Positions 35,050 to 40,901 of a stretch of 64,000 nucleotides of DNA are shown one piece after another. The DNA is from Candidatus Woesearchaeota archaeon (GTDB taxonomy: Archaea > Nanobdellota > Nanobdellia > SCGC-AAA011-G17 > JACPNG01): the NCBI GenBank assembly GCA_016185615.1, contig JACPNE010000005.1:33622-97621 (forward strand). The letters are read 5' to 3'. Within the stretch, counting starts at the first letter, position 1. Each line of letters starts with the position of its first letter. Under the pieces are notes generated by a model, which saw nothing but the letters and a program-made list of their open reading frames with translations, was not told where the DNA came from and did not search any database. The position numbers and the translations under genes were made by a program.

Positions 35050-35969
35050 TTTCTTATAATGGTTTTTCTCATTTCTTTTATAGATTTTCCTGATGGACTT
35101 ATTGAGGTTATTACTACTTGTTTTCCTCCTTTCTCTATGAAATGAATAGCAGCCTTTATCTTAGGGCCCATACTTCCTTCTGGAAATTGGCCTTCTTCAA
35201 AATATTTCTTAGCATCTTTTAAGTTTAAATTATCTAAGAATTTTTGATTTTTTTGTTTGTAATTAATGGCTACTCTTTCAATATCGGTTATTATAATAAT
35301 CTCATCAAATTTTAATGAAGATGCTAAACATTCAGAGGCTAAATCTTTGTCAATTACAGCTTCTATACCAATTAGATTATTTTTGTTTTTATGGATAGGA
35401 ATTCCACCCCCACCACATGCTATTACTATAGATTTTTTATTCACTAAACTTTTTATTGTATTACATTCTATAATTTCCAATGGTTCTGGACTAGCAACAA
35501 CCCTTCTGTAGCCTTGCCTTGGATCTTTTTTTATCTTGTATCCTTTTAACTTATTAATCTCATTTTTATTATAAAAAGGACCAATAAATTTTGTTGGATT
35601 TCTGAAGGCTTTATCTTTTTTATCAACTAATACTTGGGTAAGAATTGTTACAACATCTCTTTTTATTTTGTTCTCTCTTAATATATTAATTAATTCTTTC
35701 TCTAATAAATATCCTAGCCACCCTTGGGATTCTGCACCAATAACATCTAAGGGCATCTGAGAGAATTTATTCTTGGCTAACTCATTTTGGATTGCTAATA
35801 TCCCTACTTGAGGACCGTTCCCAAATGTTATAACTATCTTATTATTCTTTATTATTGGGAGTAGTTGTTTGTACGTATTTCTTATATGGCTAATAAGGGA
35901 AGAATAATCTCCATTCTCACCCTTTTTTAGTATAGCATTCCCACCCAATGCTATTAATATCTTTTTCAC
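35046..35969 (-). CDS. arcC: Carbamate kinase
   Basis: ILIALGGNAI, GNGPQVG, ACGGGGIP motifs. Confidence 0.85.
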   Translation of the reverse strand: MKKILIALGGNAILKKGENGDYSSLISHIRNTYKQLLPIIKNNKIVITFGNGPQVGILAIQNELAKNKFSQMPLDVIGAESQGWLGYLLEKELINILRENKIKRDVVTILTQVLVDKKDKAFRNPTKFIGPFYNKNEINKLKGYKIKKDPRQGYRRVVASPEPLEIIECNTIKSLVNKKSIVIACGGGGIPIHKNKNNLIGIEAVIDKDLASECLASSLKFDEIIIITDIERVAINYKQKNQKFLDNLNLKDAKKYFEEGQFPEGSMGPKIKAAIHFIEKGGKQVVITSISPSGKSIKEMRKTIIRK

Positions 35970-36041
35970 ACATTAAGAAGCATTTTATTCTTTATATTTG
36001 TTTTCTGAATTCTTATTAGAAAGTTTTATAGGTTTTACTGG

Positions 36042-36338
36042 GTGGTTAAAAATATGGGAAATACAATATTATGCAAAACTGAAGATGAAAAGGCTTATGG
36101 ATGGTATAGGTTTTTTGATGGAAGCAAAGTCCCATTCCATGGAGTTACTTGCGATATTAATTCTCTTGTTGTAAATATGAAATCTAATGCTTATCTTTTT
36201 GAAGAGCCATTTGATATTGAAACAAAGGTTCCAGAAATAAATTTTGGGAGTTTGGATAAATCTCTTTTTGGATTAATTAGTATAGATGAACTAAAAGAAG
36301 TTAGACAAGCTTTAGGATTATCTGAAAATAGTTCTTGA
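36042..36338 (+). CDS. Hypothetical protein
   Basis: The ORF caller starts at GTG 36042. The ATG at 36054 lies about 27 nt downstream of the TATA-like ttttata (36024-36030) and is the more likely start. The stop TGA lies within the flanking direct repeat of the adjacent cassette. Confidence 0.4.
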   Translation: MVKNMGNTILCKTEDEKAYGWYRFFDGSKVPFHGVTCDINSLVVNMKSNAYLFEEPFDIETKVPEINFGSLDKSLFGLISIDELKEVRQALGLSENSS

Positions 36339-36345
36339 TAGGCTT

Positions 36346-36395
36346 TGTGTAAATAGTCTCAGTTGTGTAGAAAGTAATCATCTTGTGTAAAAAGT
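36346..36395 (+). repeat. Three direct copies of the 12-mer TGTGTARAWAGT at the left end of the cassette
   Basis: tgtgtaaatagt (36346), tgtgtagaaagt (36364) and tgtgtaaaaagt (36384), spaced 18 and 20 bp apart. Confidence 0.75.
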
Positions 36396-36598
36396 CATTT
36401 TCTTAATTTTTTTCTATAATAATCTATAGAATATGCAGCCATAGACCAACAGACTAATAATGCCATCCAAATAGAACCAATTAGAGAGATCCAAAATAAG
36501 AATCTTATATTGTTTAATTCAGAAAATCCTAATCCAATTAAGAAAATTCCTAAAACATATAATGGTTGGTTCATCTTTGGCAAATTTATGTCTGGCAT
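36395..36598 (-). CDS. Small 2-TM membrane protein (cassette cargo)
   Basis: Two hydrophobic helices followed by a basic tail (YYRKKLRK). Confidence 0.4.
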   Translation of the reverse strand: MPDINLPKMNQPLYVLGIFLIGLGFSELNNIRFLFWISLIGSIWMALLVCWSMAAYSIDYYRKKLRK

Positions 36599-36618
36599 TT
36601 TAATTTATCCTGTACTTT

Positions 36619-36816
36619 TCATTTTCTTTTATTTTTAAGTGGTTTAGGTTCATATTCCAACTTTTTTAAAAGTAATTCATTCACTACCTTGTTAATATCT
36701 ATTTTCTCATTACAAATCGGACAAGGAGATATTTTACCTTCTCTAATCCTTTTATAACTCATACTCATTCTTCTACCACAATTAGGGCATTTGGTATCTC
36801 TAAATCTCTTCGTCAT
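36619..36816 (-). CDS. Zinc-ribbon small basic protein (cassette cargo)
   Basis: CPNCG...CPIC, four Cys residues, and a Lys-rich tail. Confidence 0.45.
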   Translation of the reverse strand: MTKRFRDTKCPNCGRRMSMSYKRIREGKISPCPICNEKIDINKVVNELLLKKLEYEPKPLKNKRK

Positions 36817-36850
36817 TCTTCTTAAATATTATCTTATCTATTGATATTTT

Positions 36851-37144
36851 CTAAGGATAGTCTATACAATGATTATAGTTATTTGGTTTACATCTCCATA
36901 CTCTATTTATTATTTTAATCCACCCATAAAAAAAGCCATACTTCTTAATTGCAATTAGTCCATAATCAGAACATGTTGGATAAAATCTACATTTACTACC
37001 AAGTTTGTTTAACTTTGGAGATAATCCTTTCTGATGAATATTGGTTATGAACCAAATAGATAATTCAATTAAAATATTACTTTCTTTTTTCATAATAAAT
37101 GGTTTCTTTATTAACATCTTTTGAATTACAGTTTGGGCATTCAT
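36851..37144 (-). CDS. yidD: YidD-like membrane protein insertion efficiency factor homologue (cassette cargo)
   Basis: LSPK...CRFYPTCSDYGLIAIKKYG...RVWRCKP...IDYP parallels bacterial YidD ISP...CRF.PTCS.Y...R..RCHP...DPVP. The true start is probably an internal Met at 37117 or 37093. Confidence 0.6.
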   Translation of the reverse strand: MNAQTVIQKMLIKKPFIMKKESNILIELSIWFITNIHQKGLSPKLNKLGSKCRFYPTCSDYGLIAIKKYGFFYGWIKIINRVWRCKPNNYNHCIDYP

Positions 37145-37340
37145 CCAATTCTCTTTGTTTCTGCCTTAATCCACCCACTAAAATACCAATAGGATTACAA
37201 CAACATGCACTTGCTTGTATCATGTCCTTTCCTGATTCTGTTAAAGTTTGAGATGTTTTCTCAGAAGGAAGATAATGCCATATCTTACCACACTGATTAC
37301 ATTTACATTTAATCTCTTTAATAATTTCTTTTGCCTTCAT
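37077..37340 (-). CDS. Zinc-ribbon protein (cassette cargo)
   Basis: CKCNQCG...CPNC. Confidence 0.4.
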   Translation of the reverse strand: MKAKEIIKEIKCKCNQCGKIWHYLPSEKTSQTLTESGKDMIQASACCCNPIGILVGGLRQKQRELDECPNCNSKDVNKETIYYEKRK

Positions 37341-37395
37341 TATATTTTAACAACTCTTTTCTTATATAAATGAATTGTAAGTGATATGACTAAAA

Positions 37396-38328
37396 TTAAT
37401 CTTCTTTTAATTCATTCATAATTATATTTGCCCCGCTCATACTTTTTTTTTCTGCGGTTCTTTTTAATTCTTCAATCATTTCAGTATTTTTTTCAGGTAT
37501 AGCAAACCAACCAGTATTAAGACCTTCTTTTATAGCATGGTTAATCAAATCATGAGATTTTTTTATTATAATAATAATATTATCTAAATCTCCTACATTT
37601 TTTAGATAGATCCTGCCCCATTTTAGAGCATCTGCATATGGAATTTCTACCCCATTTATTTTTTCAGCATTTGTAAATAAATGTAATTTTATCCCTTGTT
37701 TTTGAGGATGCATGTAAATAAATACCTTTTCTGGACTATAATAGGTTATAGCATTTTTAGAAACTTTTCTCCAAATATTATTATTAATTTCTTGTATTTT
37801 TCTATCTAAGATTTCAAACAATTCTTTTGTTTTATTCCAATCATTGTGGATATGATGAGATAATTCAATAATTTCTTCTTTATTATCAATTTTGTCTGGG
37901 TCTTCTAAGGTAGGATTGTCTAATCCCCCTATCTCAGATTTTAATTCGATAACTTCAACTCCCTTCCTATTTAGATTTTCTTTCTGTTCTTCACTTAAAT
38001 CATCATTCCAACAGACAATAACATCACACCCAATTGGGTCATGGTCAAAATTGCTACTTTTATATTCAAATTCTATATTTATCCTTTCCCATCTACCTTT
38101 ACCCAAGTATCGTATTGCCGTACAATCTGGATAACCTTGCTGAATGCTTTCGACTCTTATATTCAAATTCTCAGCAACTAATCCAAATAAGTAAACAACT
38201 CCCTGTTCATTAATTGGGTTGTACATCATTCCTCTAAAATTCATAGGACTTCCAACTTGAGTTTTATCCTTAACCATACAATAGTGCCAATAAGAATTAT
38301 ATTTAAACTTTCCTGTGTAGAAAGTCAC
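37396..38328 (-). CDS. PD-(D/E)xK nuclease-like N-terminal domain protein with a DUF5655-like C-terminal domain (cassette cargo)
   Basis: GYPDCTAIRY...INIEFEYKSSNF.HD...CDVIVCW fits D...ExK plus the trailing strand common in restriction-endonuclease-fold proteins. C-terminal YYSPEKVFIYMHPQKQGIKLHL resembles DUF5655. The GTG start is uncertain. Confidence 0.45.
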   Translation of the reverse strand: MTFYTGKFKYNSYWHYCMVKDKTQVGSPMNFRGMMYNPINEQGVVYLFGLVAENLNIRVESIQQGYPDCTAIRYLGKGRWERINIEFEYKSSNFDHDPIGCDVIVCWNDDLSEEQKENLNRKGVEVIELKSEIGGLDNPTLEDPDKIDNKEEIIELSHHIHNDWNKTKELFEILDRKIQEINNNIWRKVSKNAITYYSPEKVFIYMHPQKQGIKLHLFTNAEKINGVEIPYADALKWGRIYLKNVGDLDNIIIIIKKSHDLINHAIKEGLNTGWFAIPEKNTEMIEELKRTAEKKSMSGANIIMNELKED

Positions 38329-38351
38329 TCAAAATCAGCACTTTTTACACA
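38314..38351. repeat. Two copies of the same 12-mer at the right end (one direct, one inverted and terminal)
   Basis: tgtgtagaaagt (38314-25, next to the GTG start of the 310-aa ORF) and actttttacaca (38340-51, the reverse complement of tgtgtaaaaagt). Confidence 0.75.
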
Positions 38352-38373
38352 AAGCCTTCTTGATGAAAACCTA

Positions 38374-38380
38374 TTTATAA
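38374..38380 (+). promoter_or_regulatory. Archaeal TATA box for the aminotransferase gene
   Basis: tttataa is centred about 25 nt upstream of the ATG at 38402. Confidence 0.5.
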
Positions 38381-38401
38381 TCAAAAATTTAATCTAAAGT
38401 A

Positions 38402-39568
38402 ATGAGGCATATATCAGAGAGAGAATTACAACTTCCAGATGCTGTTATAGGAAAATTATTGGGATTAGCAGCAGAAGATAAATCCATTATTTCATTAGGC
38501 CCAGGTGAGCCAGATTTTGAAACTCCCAAGCCTTTATTACAATACTTAAAGTCAATTATTTCAAAAAATAAAAAATTAAGATTTACACATTATTCCCCAA
38601 GCGAAGGAAGGACTGATTTAAGGGAAGCTATTGTAAAGAAATTAAAAAGAGACAATAAAATTAATGCTGATATTGATAATATTATAGTAACAACTGGGAG
38701 TCAAGAAGCTATTTTTACCACATTATTATCAACTTTGGATATTAATGAGCAAGTAATAATCCCAAATCCAGGATATTTAGCTTATTTGCCAGCAATAGAA
38801 TTAAGTGATGCTGTTCCTGTTGACTTGGAATTAAGAGAAGAAGAAGGATTTGAGATAAACCCAGACAGAATTAAGAAATTAATAAACAAAAAAACAAGAG
38901 GCATAATTGTTAATACCCCTTCTAATCCTACTGGAACTGTATTAAGCAAAAAATTATTAGAAGAAATTGCTGACATAGCTGTAAATAATGATTTATACAT
39001 TTTTAGTGATGAGGCTTATGAAAAATTAATTTATGATTCCAAACATATTAGCATTGGATCATTTAATGGGATGAAGAATTATGTTATAACCTTACAGACT
39101 TTCTCTAAAAGTTATGCTATGTGCGGATTTAGATTAGGATATGCTCATGGTCCTAGAAATGTAATTGATGCAATGAAAAAAAGCATTCATTATATTACAT
39201 TAGCTGCTCCAACTTTATCCCAGTTAGTTGGAATAAAAGCATTAAGTTTGCCTAATAAGCATATAGAAAAAATGAGAAAAGAGTATGACAGAAGAAGAAG
39301 ATTCATTGTTAAGAGATTAAATGAGATTGGATTAAGAACTTTAGAGCCAAAAGGGGCATTTTATGCATTTTCTAACATAAAAGATTTTAATCTTAAATCT
39401 AGTGTATTTGCCAAGAGATTATTAAATGAAGCTAAAGTTGCTGTTGTGCCAGGAACTGAATTTGGAAGATTTGGAGAAGGATATATTAGATTTAGTTATG
39501 CTACTGATTACAAACTGATTGTTAAAGCTATGGACAGATTGGAGAAGTTTGTTAAGAGATTAAAATAA
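38402..39568 (+). CDS. Class I/II PLP-dependent (aspartate-type) aminotransferase
   Basis: NPSNPTG, SDEAYE, and SKSYAMCGFRLGY (PLP lysine). Confidence 0.85.
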   Translation: MRHISERELQLPDAVIGKLLGLAAEDKSIISLGPGEPDFETPKPLLQYLKSIISKNKKLRFTHYSPSEGRTDLREAIVKKLKRDNKINADIDNIIVTTGSQEAIFTTLLSTLDINEQVIIPNPGYLAYLPAIELSDAVPVDLELREEEGFEINPDRIKKLINKKTRGIIVNTPSNPTGTVLSKKLLEEIADIAVNNDLYIFSDEAYEKLIYDSKHISIGSFNGMKNYVITLQTFSKSYAMCGFRLGYAHGPRNVIDAMKKSIHYITLAAPTLSQLVGIKALSLPNKHIEKMRKEYDRRRRFIVKRLNEIGLRTLEPKGAFYAFSNIKDFNLKSSVFAKRLLNEAKVAVVPGTEFGRFGEGYIRFSYATDYKLIVKAMDRLEKFVKRLK

Positions 39569-39617
39569 CCATTAAATCCCAATAAAGATTATAAATCTTT
39601 ACTCAACCAAACAAAAT

Positions 39618-40901
39618 ATGAGTAAAGTTCTTATTATTGGTTCTGGTGGTAGAGAACATGCTTTGGGATGGAAAATTGCTCAAAGTCCAGAAGTTTCTGA
39701 GGTTTTATATTCTTCAGGAAATGCAGGAACATATAATGAAATTAAAGGAAGAAATATAGAAACAAGTGGTTCAAATGAAGATTTAGCACATTTAATAGAA
39801 TCAGAAAATATTGATTTAACCATTATTGGTCCAGAACAACCTTTAGCTAATGGATTAGTTGATTTTCTTAACTCAAGAGGATATTATAAAGTGTTTGGTC
39901 CCACAGAGAAAGCAGCTCAATTAGAGTCTGATAAATTTTTTTCTTATAGAATAATGAAAGAACTAAAAATTCCTCAAGCTGATTCAATTTTATGTAAATC
40001 ATTAGATGAAGCTATAGATGCTATTGAAAAAACAGGTTTTACTGTAATAAAAGCAAGGGGACTTACTGCTGGAAAAGGTGTTACAGTTTGTAGTACAAAA
40101 GAAGAAACTCTTGAAATTGTTGAGAAACATTCGGAACAATATAAAGATAAAGATGGAAATTATCATGTACTAATTGCTGAGAGATTGTATGGACAAGAGT
40201 TTTCAGTATTTGGAATTTCAGATGGAAAAATAGTTTCACCACTAGAAATTTCATTGCAAGATCATAAAAGATTATTAGACAATGATAAAGGTCCAAATAC
40301 GGGGGGCATGGGTGCATATTGTCCTGTACCAATTGCATCTAAAGATTTAGTGAGATATGTTGCTAATAAAATAATGACCCCTGTTATTCAAAAAATGAGA
40401 TCAGATGGAATTGAATATAAGGGATTTATTTATGCTGGAATGATAATGACAAATAAAAGGTTAAGAGTTCTTGAATTTAATGTAAGATTTGGAGACCCAG
40501 AATGTCAACCAGCAATGATGATGATAAATAATGGATTATATGAAACAATTTCTCTTGCCTTAGAAGGAAAATTAAATAGACCTAAAATTAATTTTAAACC
40601 TGGAGCTTCATGTTGTGTAGTTTTAGCATCACAAGGATATCCTGAGAATTATAAAAAAGGTTTACTAATATCTGGTTTGGATGAAGTTAATGGTATTGGG
40701 AATGTAAAAATATTTCATGCGGGAACAAAATTAGATTATAGTAATAGGATTGTGACAGCAGGCGGAAGAGTATTGGGAGTAACTGCTTATTCAGAAGATG
40801 GAATTGGAGAAGCCCAAAAATTAGCTTATTATACAGTCCAAAGGATAAATATTGATGGTGGGTTTTATTATAGAAGAGATATAGGAAGTAAAGCTTTATA
40901 A
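39618..40901 (+). CDS. purD: Phosphoribosylamine-glycine ligase
   Basis: KVLIIGSGGREHALGWK, ATP-grasp core, EFNVRFGDPE. Confidence 0.9.
   Translation: MSKVLIIGSGGREHALGWKIAQSPEVSEVLYSSGNAGTYNEIKGRNIETSGSNEDLAHLIESENIDLTIIGPEQPLANGLVDFLNSRGYYKVFGPTEKAAQLESDKFFSYRIMKELKIPQADSILCKSLDEAIDAIEKTGFTVIKARGLTAGKGVTVCSTKEETLEIVEKHSEQYKDKDGNYHVLIAERLYGQEFSVFGISDGKIVSPLEISLQDHKRLLDNDKGPNTGGMGAYCPVPIASKDLVRYVANKIMTPVIQKMRSDGIEYKGFIYAGMIMTNKRLRVLEFNVRFGDPECQPAMMMINNGLYETISLALEGKLNRPKINFKPGASCCVVLASQGYPENYKKGLLISGLDEVNGIGNVKIFHAGTKLDYSNRIVTAGGRVLGVTAYSEDGIGEAQKLAYYTVQRINIDGGFYYRRDIGSKAL

Follow-up and report, generated by a model that had tools for sequence, protein, structure and literature searches.

The 2-kb cassette at positions 36341-38356 of the window (the whole 64,000-nucleotide stretch of woesearchaeal DNA analysed here) is very probably a non-autonomous DNA transposon of 2016 bp, similar to elements of the IS903 group, which has no transposase and carries five passenger genes, in other words a 'mobile insertion cassette'. 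Within the known IS5/IS903 family it derives from a large archaeal branch and lacks the transposase, and its cargo is variable and unrelated to mobility, the five genes playing no part in movement. The mystery posed by this part of the window is settled by an IS-derived cassette whose five genes are passengers and not new transposition machinery. The features of the cassette and its immediate flanks, from left to right, are the following.

36332..36340, no strand: left copy of the target-site duplication, TTCTTGATA; holds the TGA stop of the upstream 94-aa gene and is matched by the right copy at 8/9 positions.
36341..36357, plus strand: IRL, made up of GGCTT and 12-mer no. 1, TGTGTAAATAGT (36346-36357); fits the consensus derived from 52 different L-type ends.
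36364..36375, plus strand: subterminal 12-mer no. 2, TGTGTAGAAAGT, 6 nt past no. 1; its position and orientation recur in the L-type ends of the family.
36384..36395, plus strand: subterminal 12-mer no. 3, TGTGTAAAAAGT, 8 nt past no. 2; in the L-type end consensus.
36395..36598, minus strand: cargo gene for a 67-aa protein that has two hydrophobic segments and no family match; annotated as a gene in public assemblies, and a singleton cluster at 90% identity.
36619..36816, minus strand: cargo gene of 65 aa, zinc-ribbon-like (CxxC...CxxC); its matches, to YnfU and zinc-ribbon models, are weak and do not reach the cut-off.
36851..37093, minus strand: YidD-like cargo gene, 80 aa as called (ORF to 37144); PF01809 E 2.8e-17 and TIGR00278 E 1.1e-14, above cut-off.
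37077..37340, minus strand: cargo gene of 87 aa that pairs with the YidD-like gene; zinc-ribbon-like, with ten homologues (40-69% identity).
37396..38277, minus strand: cargo gene of 293 aa with an N-terminal PD...ExE domain and a C-terminal DUF5655 domain, from sequence and predicted topology.
38297..38307, minus strand: TATA-like box TTTAAATATAA, read from the sequence, with about 26 nt between its centre and the downstream ATG (38277); by standard archaeal promoter geometry probably the cargo's own promoter, with a leaderless mRNA.
38314..38325, plus strand: subterminal 12-mer no. 4, TGTGTAGAAAGT, inverted relative to IRR and 14 nt inside it.
38340..38356, minus strand: IRR, made up of GGCTT and 12-mer no. 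5 (TGTGTAAAAAGT, minus strand), from the sequence and the family consensus.
38357..38365, no strand: right copy of the target-site duplication, TTCTTGATG, from the sequence, the empty-site contigs and the family comparison.
38366..38401, plus strand: aminotransferase promoter and spacer, untouched, with a BRE-like purine-rich GAAAACC and TATTTATAA before the ATG at 38402; identical in the empty-site contigs.

The 18-bp inverted ends, the TCTTGAT repeat and the five 12-mers were all located where the original prediction had put them. The 18-mer on the IRL side, AGGCTTTGTGTAAATAGT (36340-36357), and that on the IRR side, ACTTTTTACACAAAGCCT (38340-38357), are complementary at 17/18 positions, and TCTTGAT is found at 36333-36339 and 38358-38364. 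With up to three mismatches allowed the terminal 18-mer occurs in two places only in the 64-kb window, a count of at least two being reached in 1/100 shuffles. Exact copies of the 12-mer TGTGTARAWAGT lie at 36346, 36364, 36384 and 38314 on the plus strand and at 38340 on the minus strand and nowhere else in the window; at up to one mismatch there are seven sites where 1.35 are expected, a number reached in 0/100 shuffles. No second copy of the ends was found in the window by either the 18-mer or the 12-mer scan. The terminal bases of the cassette are GGCTTTGTGTAAATAGT and GGCTTTGTGTAAAAAGT, both opening with GGC, and within the element family the base preceding this GGC differs from copy to copy. 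The conserved terminus is therefore GGC with a variable preceding base, which sets the element at 36341-38356; the boundaries first proposed, 36340-38357, enclosed a real element but were one base off at each end. Comparison of the family with its GGC termini likewise corrects the flanking direct repeat from 7-8 bp to 9 bp, and in the window this duplication is imperfect, with 36332-36340 and 38357-38365 identical at 8/9 positions. GC content and skew did not distinguish the cassette from its surroundings, and an Rfam scan of 35500-39000 gave no match. Recombination of the cassette through the direct 17-mers at 36381-36397 and 38311-38327, which bracket the cargo, was considered and set aside, as these are just the innermost 12-mers of the standard family ends.

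Eight contigs (L028-L035), with flanks 94-98% identical to the window, carry the predicted empty site. They align to the window through 36339 and pick up again at 38358 with a single TCTTGAT, reading ...CTAAC TCTTGAT GAAAACCTATTTATAATC..., and the distance from the stop codon to the aminotransferase ATG is 38 nt. Only one copy of the target sequence, CTCTTGATG, is present in these contigs, and the reconstructed empty junction is ...AATAGTTCTTGATGAAAACC.... A read-through protein variant (P0123) translates the spacer without interruption. An exact empty site in strains this closely related means that the cassette is a true insertion; both the intact empty site that had been anticipated, with 36339 joined to 38358, and the claim that a real transposable element, bounded by terminal inverted repeats and flanked by a target-site duplication, lies here are thus borne out. 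The element entered the 38-nt spacer that separates the 94-aa gene from the aminotransferase gene, duplicating the 9-bp target TTCTTGATG, and one copy was later altered, or imperfectly copied, to TTCTTGATA. The right-hand pair of 12-mers does stand beside the TATA-like box upstream of the 293-aa gene, as would suit a segment that was never mobile and in which a local regulator uses the 12-mers as operators and the repeats are a coincidence. This is scarcely credible, however, as the empty-site contigs miss exactly the stretch between the repeats and identical ends flank unrelated cargo in dozens of archaeal genomes.

The end sequence of the family is GGCTTTGTGTA. Scanning species-representative genomes with the 18-mer gave 115 loci, of which 65 are archaeal, and scanning metagenomes gave more than 120, so that the search with the end sequence produced well over 100 related ends. 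Subterminal 12-mers are laid out as in the window at 80 of the 235 loci fetched, and the standard R-type end has a terminal 12-mer, a 14-nt gap and an inverted 12-mer (42 distinct ends). With GGC termini, at least 24 independent pairs of ends are flanked by perfect 9-bp duplications, the duplicated sequences being unrelated; the two ends of a pair are separated by 86 bp to 8193 bp. The confirmed hosts are archaea, and the ends are found in Woese-, Pace-, Aenigmat-, Micr- and Nanohaloarchaea (DPANN), Methanosarcinales, Thermoplasmata, Methanoperedens and Hadarchaeota. Many members are 86-240 bp long and occur in several copies inside single genomes; one such mini-element (L256) is present in Methanococcoides alaskense DSM 17273, and in Methanosarcinales there are several copies. 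Other members with perfect duplications carry genes without a transposase (L134, 2717 bp, with DUF488; L254, with NUDIX; L243; and others), and across the family elements of up to 8 kb contain restriction-modification and other defence genes. Three isolated matches were obtained when viral contigs were scanned with the end sequence, a result compatible with chance. The paired 12-mer pattern was also seen in loci that proved to be unrelated phage iteron-like repeats (L014-L016, L019, L020) or tandemly repeated 11-mers on two contigs of giant viruses (L013, L018). Two further pairs with this pattern are AT-rich (L017, L021).

The family comparison also bears on whether a site-specific recombinase of the tyrosine or serine type could have integrated the cassette, with TCTTGAT as the core and the inverted repeats as arms, in the manner of loxP or FRT. 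Joined together, the ends do give inverted 17-mers about a spacer of 7-9 bp, and the additional direct repeats recall those of FRT. The flanking repeats, however, differ at every insertion of the family and are always 9 bp, and are therefore a target duplication rather than a conserved core; the empty site has no similarity to the arms; and in or beside the family members scanned an integrase is absent where DDE transposases are present. Integration of this kind is thus very unlikely, the family differing from tyrosine- and serine-recombinase elements both in having no identical core and in having no integrase in the scanned elements.

A transposase of approximately 400 aa with SWIM (PF04434) and DDE_Tnp_1 (PF01609) domains is encoded by the long members L085, L142/L151 and L221, and by the partial members L044, L045, L057, L069 and L136, with a mutual identity of 50-62%. 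PF01609 scores, taken on the full-length members and not on the window, are 71-89 bits, where the cut-off is 23. As the same ends bound elements with an ordinary, IS903-like DDE transposase, the idea of a 'new type of archaeal mobile element' is not borne out; the evidence favours the alternative offered with it, a non-autonomous element mobilised in trans, with the mobilisation itself being what we infer. Among NCBIfam models NF033579 (IS5 family) fits best, with E 1e-37 and 5e-33 and scores of 130 and 115 bits that lie under the curated cut-off of 140; the IS903 transposase gives E 7.5e-64 and 216 bits on a 199-aa fragment. Some members are labelled 'IS5 family transposase' by NCBI. Homologues of the transposase number more than 6800 at E <= 1e-10, which is a lower bound as 8000 candidates were scored, and the full members examined measure 6.1-8.2 kb with their cargo.

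With the IS903 group (IS903B, IS102) the family shares a DDE_Tnp_1 transposase that scores best on NF033579, 9-bp duplications and the terminal sequence GGCTTTGT, which forms the first 8 nt of the IS903 end, GGCTTTGTTGAATAAATC, present at both ends of that element. A 9-bp duplication is the expectation for this group (PMC10376468). Since the transposase scores below the model's cut-off and, in pairwise comparison, is approximately 22-26% identical to that of IS903 and to others of IS5, it is chiefly the ends and the duplication length that place the family in the IS903 group and not elsewhere in IS5. In contrast to IS903, the archaeal transposase, just under the cut-off, is about 400 aa long with an N-terminal SWIM zinc finger, the ends have two to three additional subterminal 12-mers in a fixed asymmetric layout, and the elements carry passengers and reach 8 kb, with the window copy having no transposase. 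The ISfinder description of the IS903 group is of a compact element of approximately 1 kb with a single transposase gene of around 300 aa, and it is matched neither by the full members of the archaeal family nor by the window copy. In the IS903 terminal repeat the inner part serves for recognition and the outer GGC for cleavage, and by analogy the terminal repeat of the archaeal family may be divided in the same way. A search of the literature in a searchable library found no description of these ends, or of the SWIM and IS5 architecture, in archaea.

To move the cassette, a SWIM-zinc-finger and DDE transposase of about 400 aa, supplied by a full-length member elsewhere in the cell or population, would bind the 12-mer TGTGTARAWAGT. 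It would meet this sequence at positions 6-17 of either terminal repeat and again at the subterminal repeats, in three direct copies on the left and as a terminal copy and one inverted copy on the right. The transposase would then cut at the GGC termini and join them to staggered target cuts 9 bp apart. The 12-mers follow the standard end architecture of the family and, judged by this layout, are probably the transposase-binding sites. No transposase-bearing partner was found in the 64 kb of this genome; a full element with a transposase (L142) and one of the empty-site contigs (L035) come from the same Rifle aquifer metagenome. It is possible, if rather doubtful, that the cassette is a dead relic of the same origin, fixed after one insertion and now immobile for want of a compatible transposase. 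The element is present in 9/9 contigs from the window's own population, the window contains no second copy and no transposase, and the one differing base in the duplication suggests some age. The terminal repeats and the five 12-mers are nonetheless intact and match the family consensus, and relatives with flanks 94-98% identical do not have the element, which makes the insertion recent on that scale. A contig from another sample of the same study (L027) begins exactly where the filled and empty alleles start to coincide, which hints at a presence/absence polymorphism, and similar aquifer communities commonly contain members with a transposase.

Scans with Pfam, NCBIfam and PHROGs revealed no transposase or recombinase among the five cargo proteins and tblastn with the family transposases found nothing in the window, in agreement with what had been read from the sequence before. 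Homologues of the five are absent from all 235 loci located by the end search. The YidD homologue recognised earlier stands, its PF01809 match being over the curated cut-off, and it forms with the adjacent zinc-ribbon gene an overlapping pair that is conserved at other loci; in 2/2 neighbourhoods read, those of the 87-aa homologues P0257 and P0259, a YidD gene adjoins and the family ends are not nearby. That there are two zinc ribbons is plausible only, as the CxxC pairs are visible but every Pfam match is sub-threshold. The largest ORF, previously given as 310 aa, is 293 aa in the public record with its ATG at 38277, and at least 434 proteins make up its family. Its N-terminal domain has a predicted alpha-beta-beta-beta-alpha-beta topology and invariant P50-D51...E69-x-E71. 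The topology and motif agree with the proposed PD-(D/E)xK-like fold, but profile and structure searches give no match for it: the family profile had no significant match among PDB sequences, and Foldseek with the AlphaFold model (pLDDT 83) found no match for the N-terminal domain, the C-terminal domain showing a weak similarity to YjbR/YdhG (DUF1801)-like folds (E 0.014-0.1). PADLOC returned a single weak match, to the candidate system PDC-S18. The nearest homologues (80% and 77% identity) stand singly beside type I restriction-modification genes, where the ends and 12-mers were searched for and are absent. As the family of the largest cargo gene is found elsewhere beside restriction-modification systems, we infer a function for the cargo from this setting, and our guess is a defence-related role.

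The 293-aa protein is the product of the largest gene, with a nuclease-like N-terminal domain and a pair of 12-mers directly upstream, and might from this be taken for the transposase of a new autonomous transposon, perhaps aided by the zinc-ribbon proteins. This is highly improbable, since a homologue is encoded at 0/235 of the loci sharing the ends, its nearest homologues have neither ends nor 12-mers, and a conventional DDE transposase is present in elements that have these ends.

Among known systems, one account (PMC2266710, which cites Chen et al. 1999 and De Palmenaer et al. 2004) describes MIC231 and IS231-MIC231 of Bacillus cereus (IS4 family), in which IS ends flank passenger genes without a transposase and full-length relatives are also passenger-bearing and modular. 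The window cassette resembles MIC231 in its IS-family ends, its passenger genes and the absence of a transposase, and the empty site and the duplication fit the same description; it differs in belonging to IS5/IS903 and not IS4, and in its archaeal rather than bacterial host. For MIC231, mobilisation in trans by the parent transposase has reportedly been demonstrated experimentally, whereas for the window cassette it is presumed. Like a MITE the cassette is non-autonomous, with IS-derived inverted ends and a target duplication, but MITEs are short and non-coding and the cassette has 2016 bp and five genes. The likeness to Tn7 or Mu suggested in the original prediction holds for the multiple subterminal sites, with asymmetric binding-site-like repeats at both ends, and fails for the rest: TnsABC and MuA/MuB are absent from the window and the scanned full-length relatives, the duplication is 9 and not 5 bp, the termini are GGC and not TGT/TG, and the transposase tied to the window's family is of the IS5 type.

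The ends have uncovered a large archaeal transposon family that extends from 86-bp miniatures to 8-kb elements with defence genes, and such elements could account for defence-gene exchange among the small-genome DPANN archaea. Tentatively, the SWIM-DDE, IS903-like family may serve archaea as a principal carrier of accessory and defence genes, among them restriction-modification enzymes, GmrSD, DUF3800, nucleases and the cargo of the window, and may also be actively targeted to the upstream edge of BRE/TATA promoters, perhaps through promoter-bound TBP/TFB. Cargo-carrying DDE transposons and mobile cassettes were not detected in archaea in a 2019 survey (PMC6563490), and the family, if a vehicle of this kind, would represent that class.

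The end of the element is 46 nt upstream of the aminotransferase ATG at 38402, and an equal distance recurs in the family. Insertions of the family cluster just upstream of promoters, with the 9-bp duplication approximately 36-41 nt before leaderless start codons. In yeast, Ty3 is guided by TFIIIB, to which targeting of the promoter edge, if true, would be a parallel; the pattern would be a new case of promoter-guided integration if it reflects targeting rather than selection. The flanking TATA box, considered as a promoter reading into the element, was re-read as the outward BRE and TATA of the neighbouring gene.

The ~2-kb cassette between the 94-aa gene and the aminotransferase gene is an insertion. 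Through P0122, a protein that differs from the upstream 94-aa protein at three residues, eight contigs (L028-L035) were reached in metagenomes from the Rifle aquifer and elsewhere, with 38 nt between the 94-aa gene and the aminotransferase gene downstream. These contigs align to the window with 97.5-98.3% identity in the left flank and 94-98% in the right, the alignment stopping at 36339 and restarting at 38358, and they read ...CTAAC TCTTGAT GAAAACCTATTTATAATC..., exactly the empty site that had been predicted. The existence of this site contradicts a reading in which the repeats are regulatory and the cassette is not mobile. A read-through variant of the 94-aa protein (P0123) translates the uninterrupted spacer; this empty-site strain (ENA, 539-nt contig) has lost the gene's stop codon, and the protein runs on for 13 residues encoded by the aminotransferase promoter spacer. 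The window insertion left the aminotransferase promoter intact, as well as the stop codon of the 94-aa gene, which falls within the duplication.

The cassette is present in every contig of the same sample series (nine of nine contigs of its own population). L027 (Logan SRR12113433_373169), a strain variant from another sample with 4 SNPs in 2472 nt, is equivalent to window 38358-40829. Its first base is exactly where the filled and Rifle-type empty alleles start to coincide, as an assembly-graph branch arising from presence/absence polymorphism would produce. A further difference is seen in L028, where 1272 bp (80-1351) carrying a TrmB-family regulator gene and an 81-aa ORF lie between the cobW-like and M32 peptidase genes and are absent from the window (33559/33560). 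No family ends flank this segment, which makes it an independent indel.

All features of the original prediction are present where it had placed them. The end repeats are complementary at 17 of 18 positions, TCTTGAT lies directly outside both, and the five exact matches to the 12-mer TGTGTARAWAGT in the 64-kb window are all at the cassette ends. With one mismatch allowed the 12-mer has seven sites in the window against 1.35 expected, a number reached in none of 100 shuffles, while the 18-mer end has no other site in the window with up to three mismatches. The cassette is not set apart by its GC content, and no Rfam match was found in this region. Since the base preceding GGC differs among partner ends of the family, the true terminus is the GGC, which places the element and its target duplication, whose copies are identical at eight of nine positions, as follows.

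Boundaries of the window element
36341-38356, the element between its GGC termini (2016 bp)
36340-36357, left end repeat, AGGCTTTGTGTAAATAGT
38340-38357, right end repeat, ACTTTTTACACAAAGCCT
36332-36340, left copy of the target duplication, TTCTTGATA
38357-38365, right copy of the target duplication, TTCTTGATG

A scan of public collections with AGGCTTTGTGTARAWAGT found over 120 loci in metagenomes and 115 in species-representative genomes, 65 of the latter archaeal by record title. The archaeal hosts comprise Woese-, Pace-, Aenigmat-, Micr- and Nanohaloarchaea, Methanosarcinales, Thermoplasmata, Methanoperedens, Hadarchaeota and Nitrososphaera. By a rough estimate 35-70 matches to the pattern would arise by chance, and the ~50 bacterial matches, none of which has subterminal repeats, are the number that chance would give. 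At 80 of the 235 fetched loci more 12-mers come after the 18-mer, arranged in one of two fixed layouts.

Layouts of the family ends
L-type: GGCTT-12mer, 6 nt, 12mer, 8 nt, 12mer, all direct
R-type: GGCTT-12mer, 14 nt, inverted 12mer, often with 8 nt and a second inverted 12mer

The left end of the window element is a textbook L-type and the right end a textbook R-type, which explains the direct copy at 38314 that had seemed puzzling. At least 24 independent end pairs, taken from GGC, are flanked by perfect 9-bp repeats. The sequence of these repeats differs each time, contradicting site-specific integration with TCTTGAT as its core. End pairs span 86, 99, 106, 113, 150-236, 355-557 and 738 bp, and 2.7, 6.1, 6.5 and 8.2 kb.

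The 403-410-aa protein encoded by the long members combines an N-terminal SWIM zinc finger (PF04434) with a DDE_Tnp_1 domain (PF01609). By tblastn the same transposase is found, complete or as fragments, in thirteen fetched loci at 50-62% identity, and nothing is found in the window. The window element carries no transposase or recombinase. The best NCBIfam model for the protein is NF033579, 'IS5 family transposase' (E 1e-37; 130 bits, the cut-off being 140). The IS903 transposase, taken from an E. coli plasmid, matches this model with an E of 7.5e-64. The first eight bases of the IS903 ends, GGCTTTGTTGAATAAATC, are identical to those of the window element, and 9-bp repeats are expected of the IS903 group (PMC10376468). 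More than 6800 proteins belong to the transposase family at E <= 1e-10, a lower bound given that 8000 candidates were scored, and some homologues in Woese-, Pace-, Aenigm- and Nanoarchaeota bear the NCBI name 'IS5 family transposase'. Compared pairwise with IS5 transposases of bacteria and haloarchaea, the protein is only ~22-26% identical. From these sequence comparisons we conclude that the family probably represents a diverged archaeal branch of IS5 with ends and duplication of IS903 type; compared with IS5/IS903 it adds the SWIM domain and multiple subterminal sites. In two full-length elements (L221 843-2047; L151 6520-7727) the transposase is split into a SWIM ORF and a DDE ORF, or into two tblastn pieces, which could reflect a frameshift, a pseudogene or programmed frameshifting.

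The window element matches a known category, the mobile insertion cassette, in which passenger genes lie between IS ends; the classic example is MIC231, from the IS231 group (cited in PMC2266710). Within its family the element is no exception, since seven other loci are also transposase-less gene carriers.

Long members and gene carriers of the family
L085, 6082 bp, with transposase, perfect duplication
L142/L151, 8193 bp, with transposase, perfect duplication
L221, 6506 bp, with transposase, perfect duplication
L134, 2717 bp, transposase-less, DUF488 protein and three others, perfect 9-bp duplication
L254, transposase-less, NUDIX, perfect 9-bp duplication
L243, transposase-less, gene-carrying, perfect 9-bp duplication
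L235, transposase-less, M23 peptidase-like, duplication 8/9
L212, L183 and L048, transposase-less, gene-carrying, flanks match poorly

Full-length members carry type I/IIG restriction-modification genes, PD-(D/E)xK nucleases, GmrSD, DUF3800, GIY-YIG and Bro-N proteins. It would seem likely that transposase is supplied to the window element in trans, binding the 12-mers at positions 6-17 of each terminal repeat and in the subterminal copies, and that cleavage at GGC would be followed by insertion with a 9-bp stagger. The full element L142 and the empty-site contig L035 come from the same Rifle metagenome (JGI 3300025323).

The largest cargo gene (HYX15_02390) encodes a 293-aa protein from an ATG at 38277, rather than the GTG-initiated 310-aa ORF of the original prediction. 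A TATA-like box ~26 nt upstream of this ATG suggests a leaderless mRNA. That this protein is itself the transposase is contradicted by the loci sharing the ends, of which 0 of 235 encode a homologue. The family of the 293-aa protein has at least 434 members, with a C-terminal DUF5655 domain. An AlphaFold2 model (mean pLDDT 83) has an N-terminal alpha-beta-beta-beta-alpha-beta domain with invariant P50-D51 and E69-x-E71, compatible with a putative PD-(D/E)xK nuclease, and a C-terminal domain weakly resembling YjbR/YdhG folds. The two closest homologues (80% and 77% identity; L008 and L012) adjoin hsdM/hsdS/hsdR genes, and this position beside type I restriction-modification operons suggests that the protein family is associated with defence islands; one locus also has a PIN-domain gene and the other DUF553. 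The 87-aa zinc-ribbon and YidD-like genes (36851-37340, minus strand) form an overlapping pair kept at both other loci examined (L272 5001-5541; L274 1800-2316), one AT-rich (26% GC) and adjoining a 785-aa N6 methyltransferase, the other 41% GC. In the usual description YidD is a bacterial factor for membrane insertion. Family ends were found neither at these two loci nor at those of the two closest 293-aa homologues, which makes the cargo a mosaic whose modules also exist apart from the transposon.

Family insertions cluster at the upstream edges of archaeal promoters that face outward (window 38357-38402; flanks of L036-L270). At 32 of 92 distinct ends a TATA-like hexamer begins 19-24 nt beyond the GGC terminus; each of two control positions gives 3 of 92. 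The T-run between hexamer and element reads as a purine-rich BRE on the opposite strand, so that the promoter points away from the element. At 14 of 75 ends an ORF directed outwards begins 45-51 nt from the terminus (46 nt in the window). Of 30 reconstructed empty sites, 11 place the duplication 36-41 nt upstream of a start codon, and several of the 11 have at least 70 nt of free spacer on the other side. The pattern may reflect true targeting of this promoter edge, or it may be that only harmless insertions survive in compact genomes.

Elements of this kind are known, namely IS5/IS903-type DDE transposons with non-autonomous derivatives. In the searchable library no description was found of the SWIM-DDE transposase, of the fixed multi-12-mer end architecture, or of a continuum in DPANN and other archaea that begins with 86-bp miniatures, takes in gene-carrying cassettes and ends with 8-kb transposons bearing defence genes, and a 2019 survey stated that passenger-gene transposons were undetected in archaea (PMC6563490). 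The window element is of moderate interest, the leads at family level of more.

The 12-mer TGTGTAAAAAGT also occurs as 17-bp-spaced pairs in related GC-rich phage contigs (L014-L016, L019, L020) and within an 11-bp tandem array of two giant-virus contigs (L013, L018), neither of which seems related to the archaeal transposon. Short members of 113-236 bp are present in several copies per genome, as in one Methanosarcinales MAG (L188, L201, L211, L222, L251, L262) and one Woesearchaeota MAG (L156, L202, L207), with further examples at L051, L077, L103, L161 and L238. Their interiors are conserved across genomes, for example GTGCCAAGAGGTGCACAGCGAAC...ATTCGTAAGA, and might be structured or functional. 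An 86-88-bp mini-element (L256) is found in the cultured isolate Methanococcoides alaskense DSM 17273, a possible experimental host.
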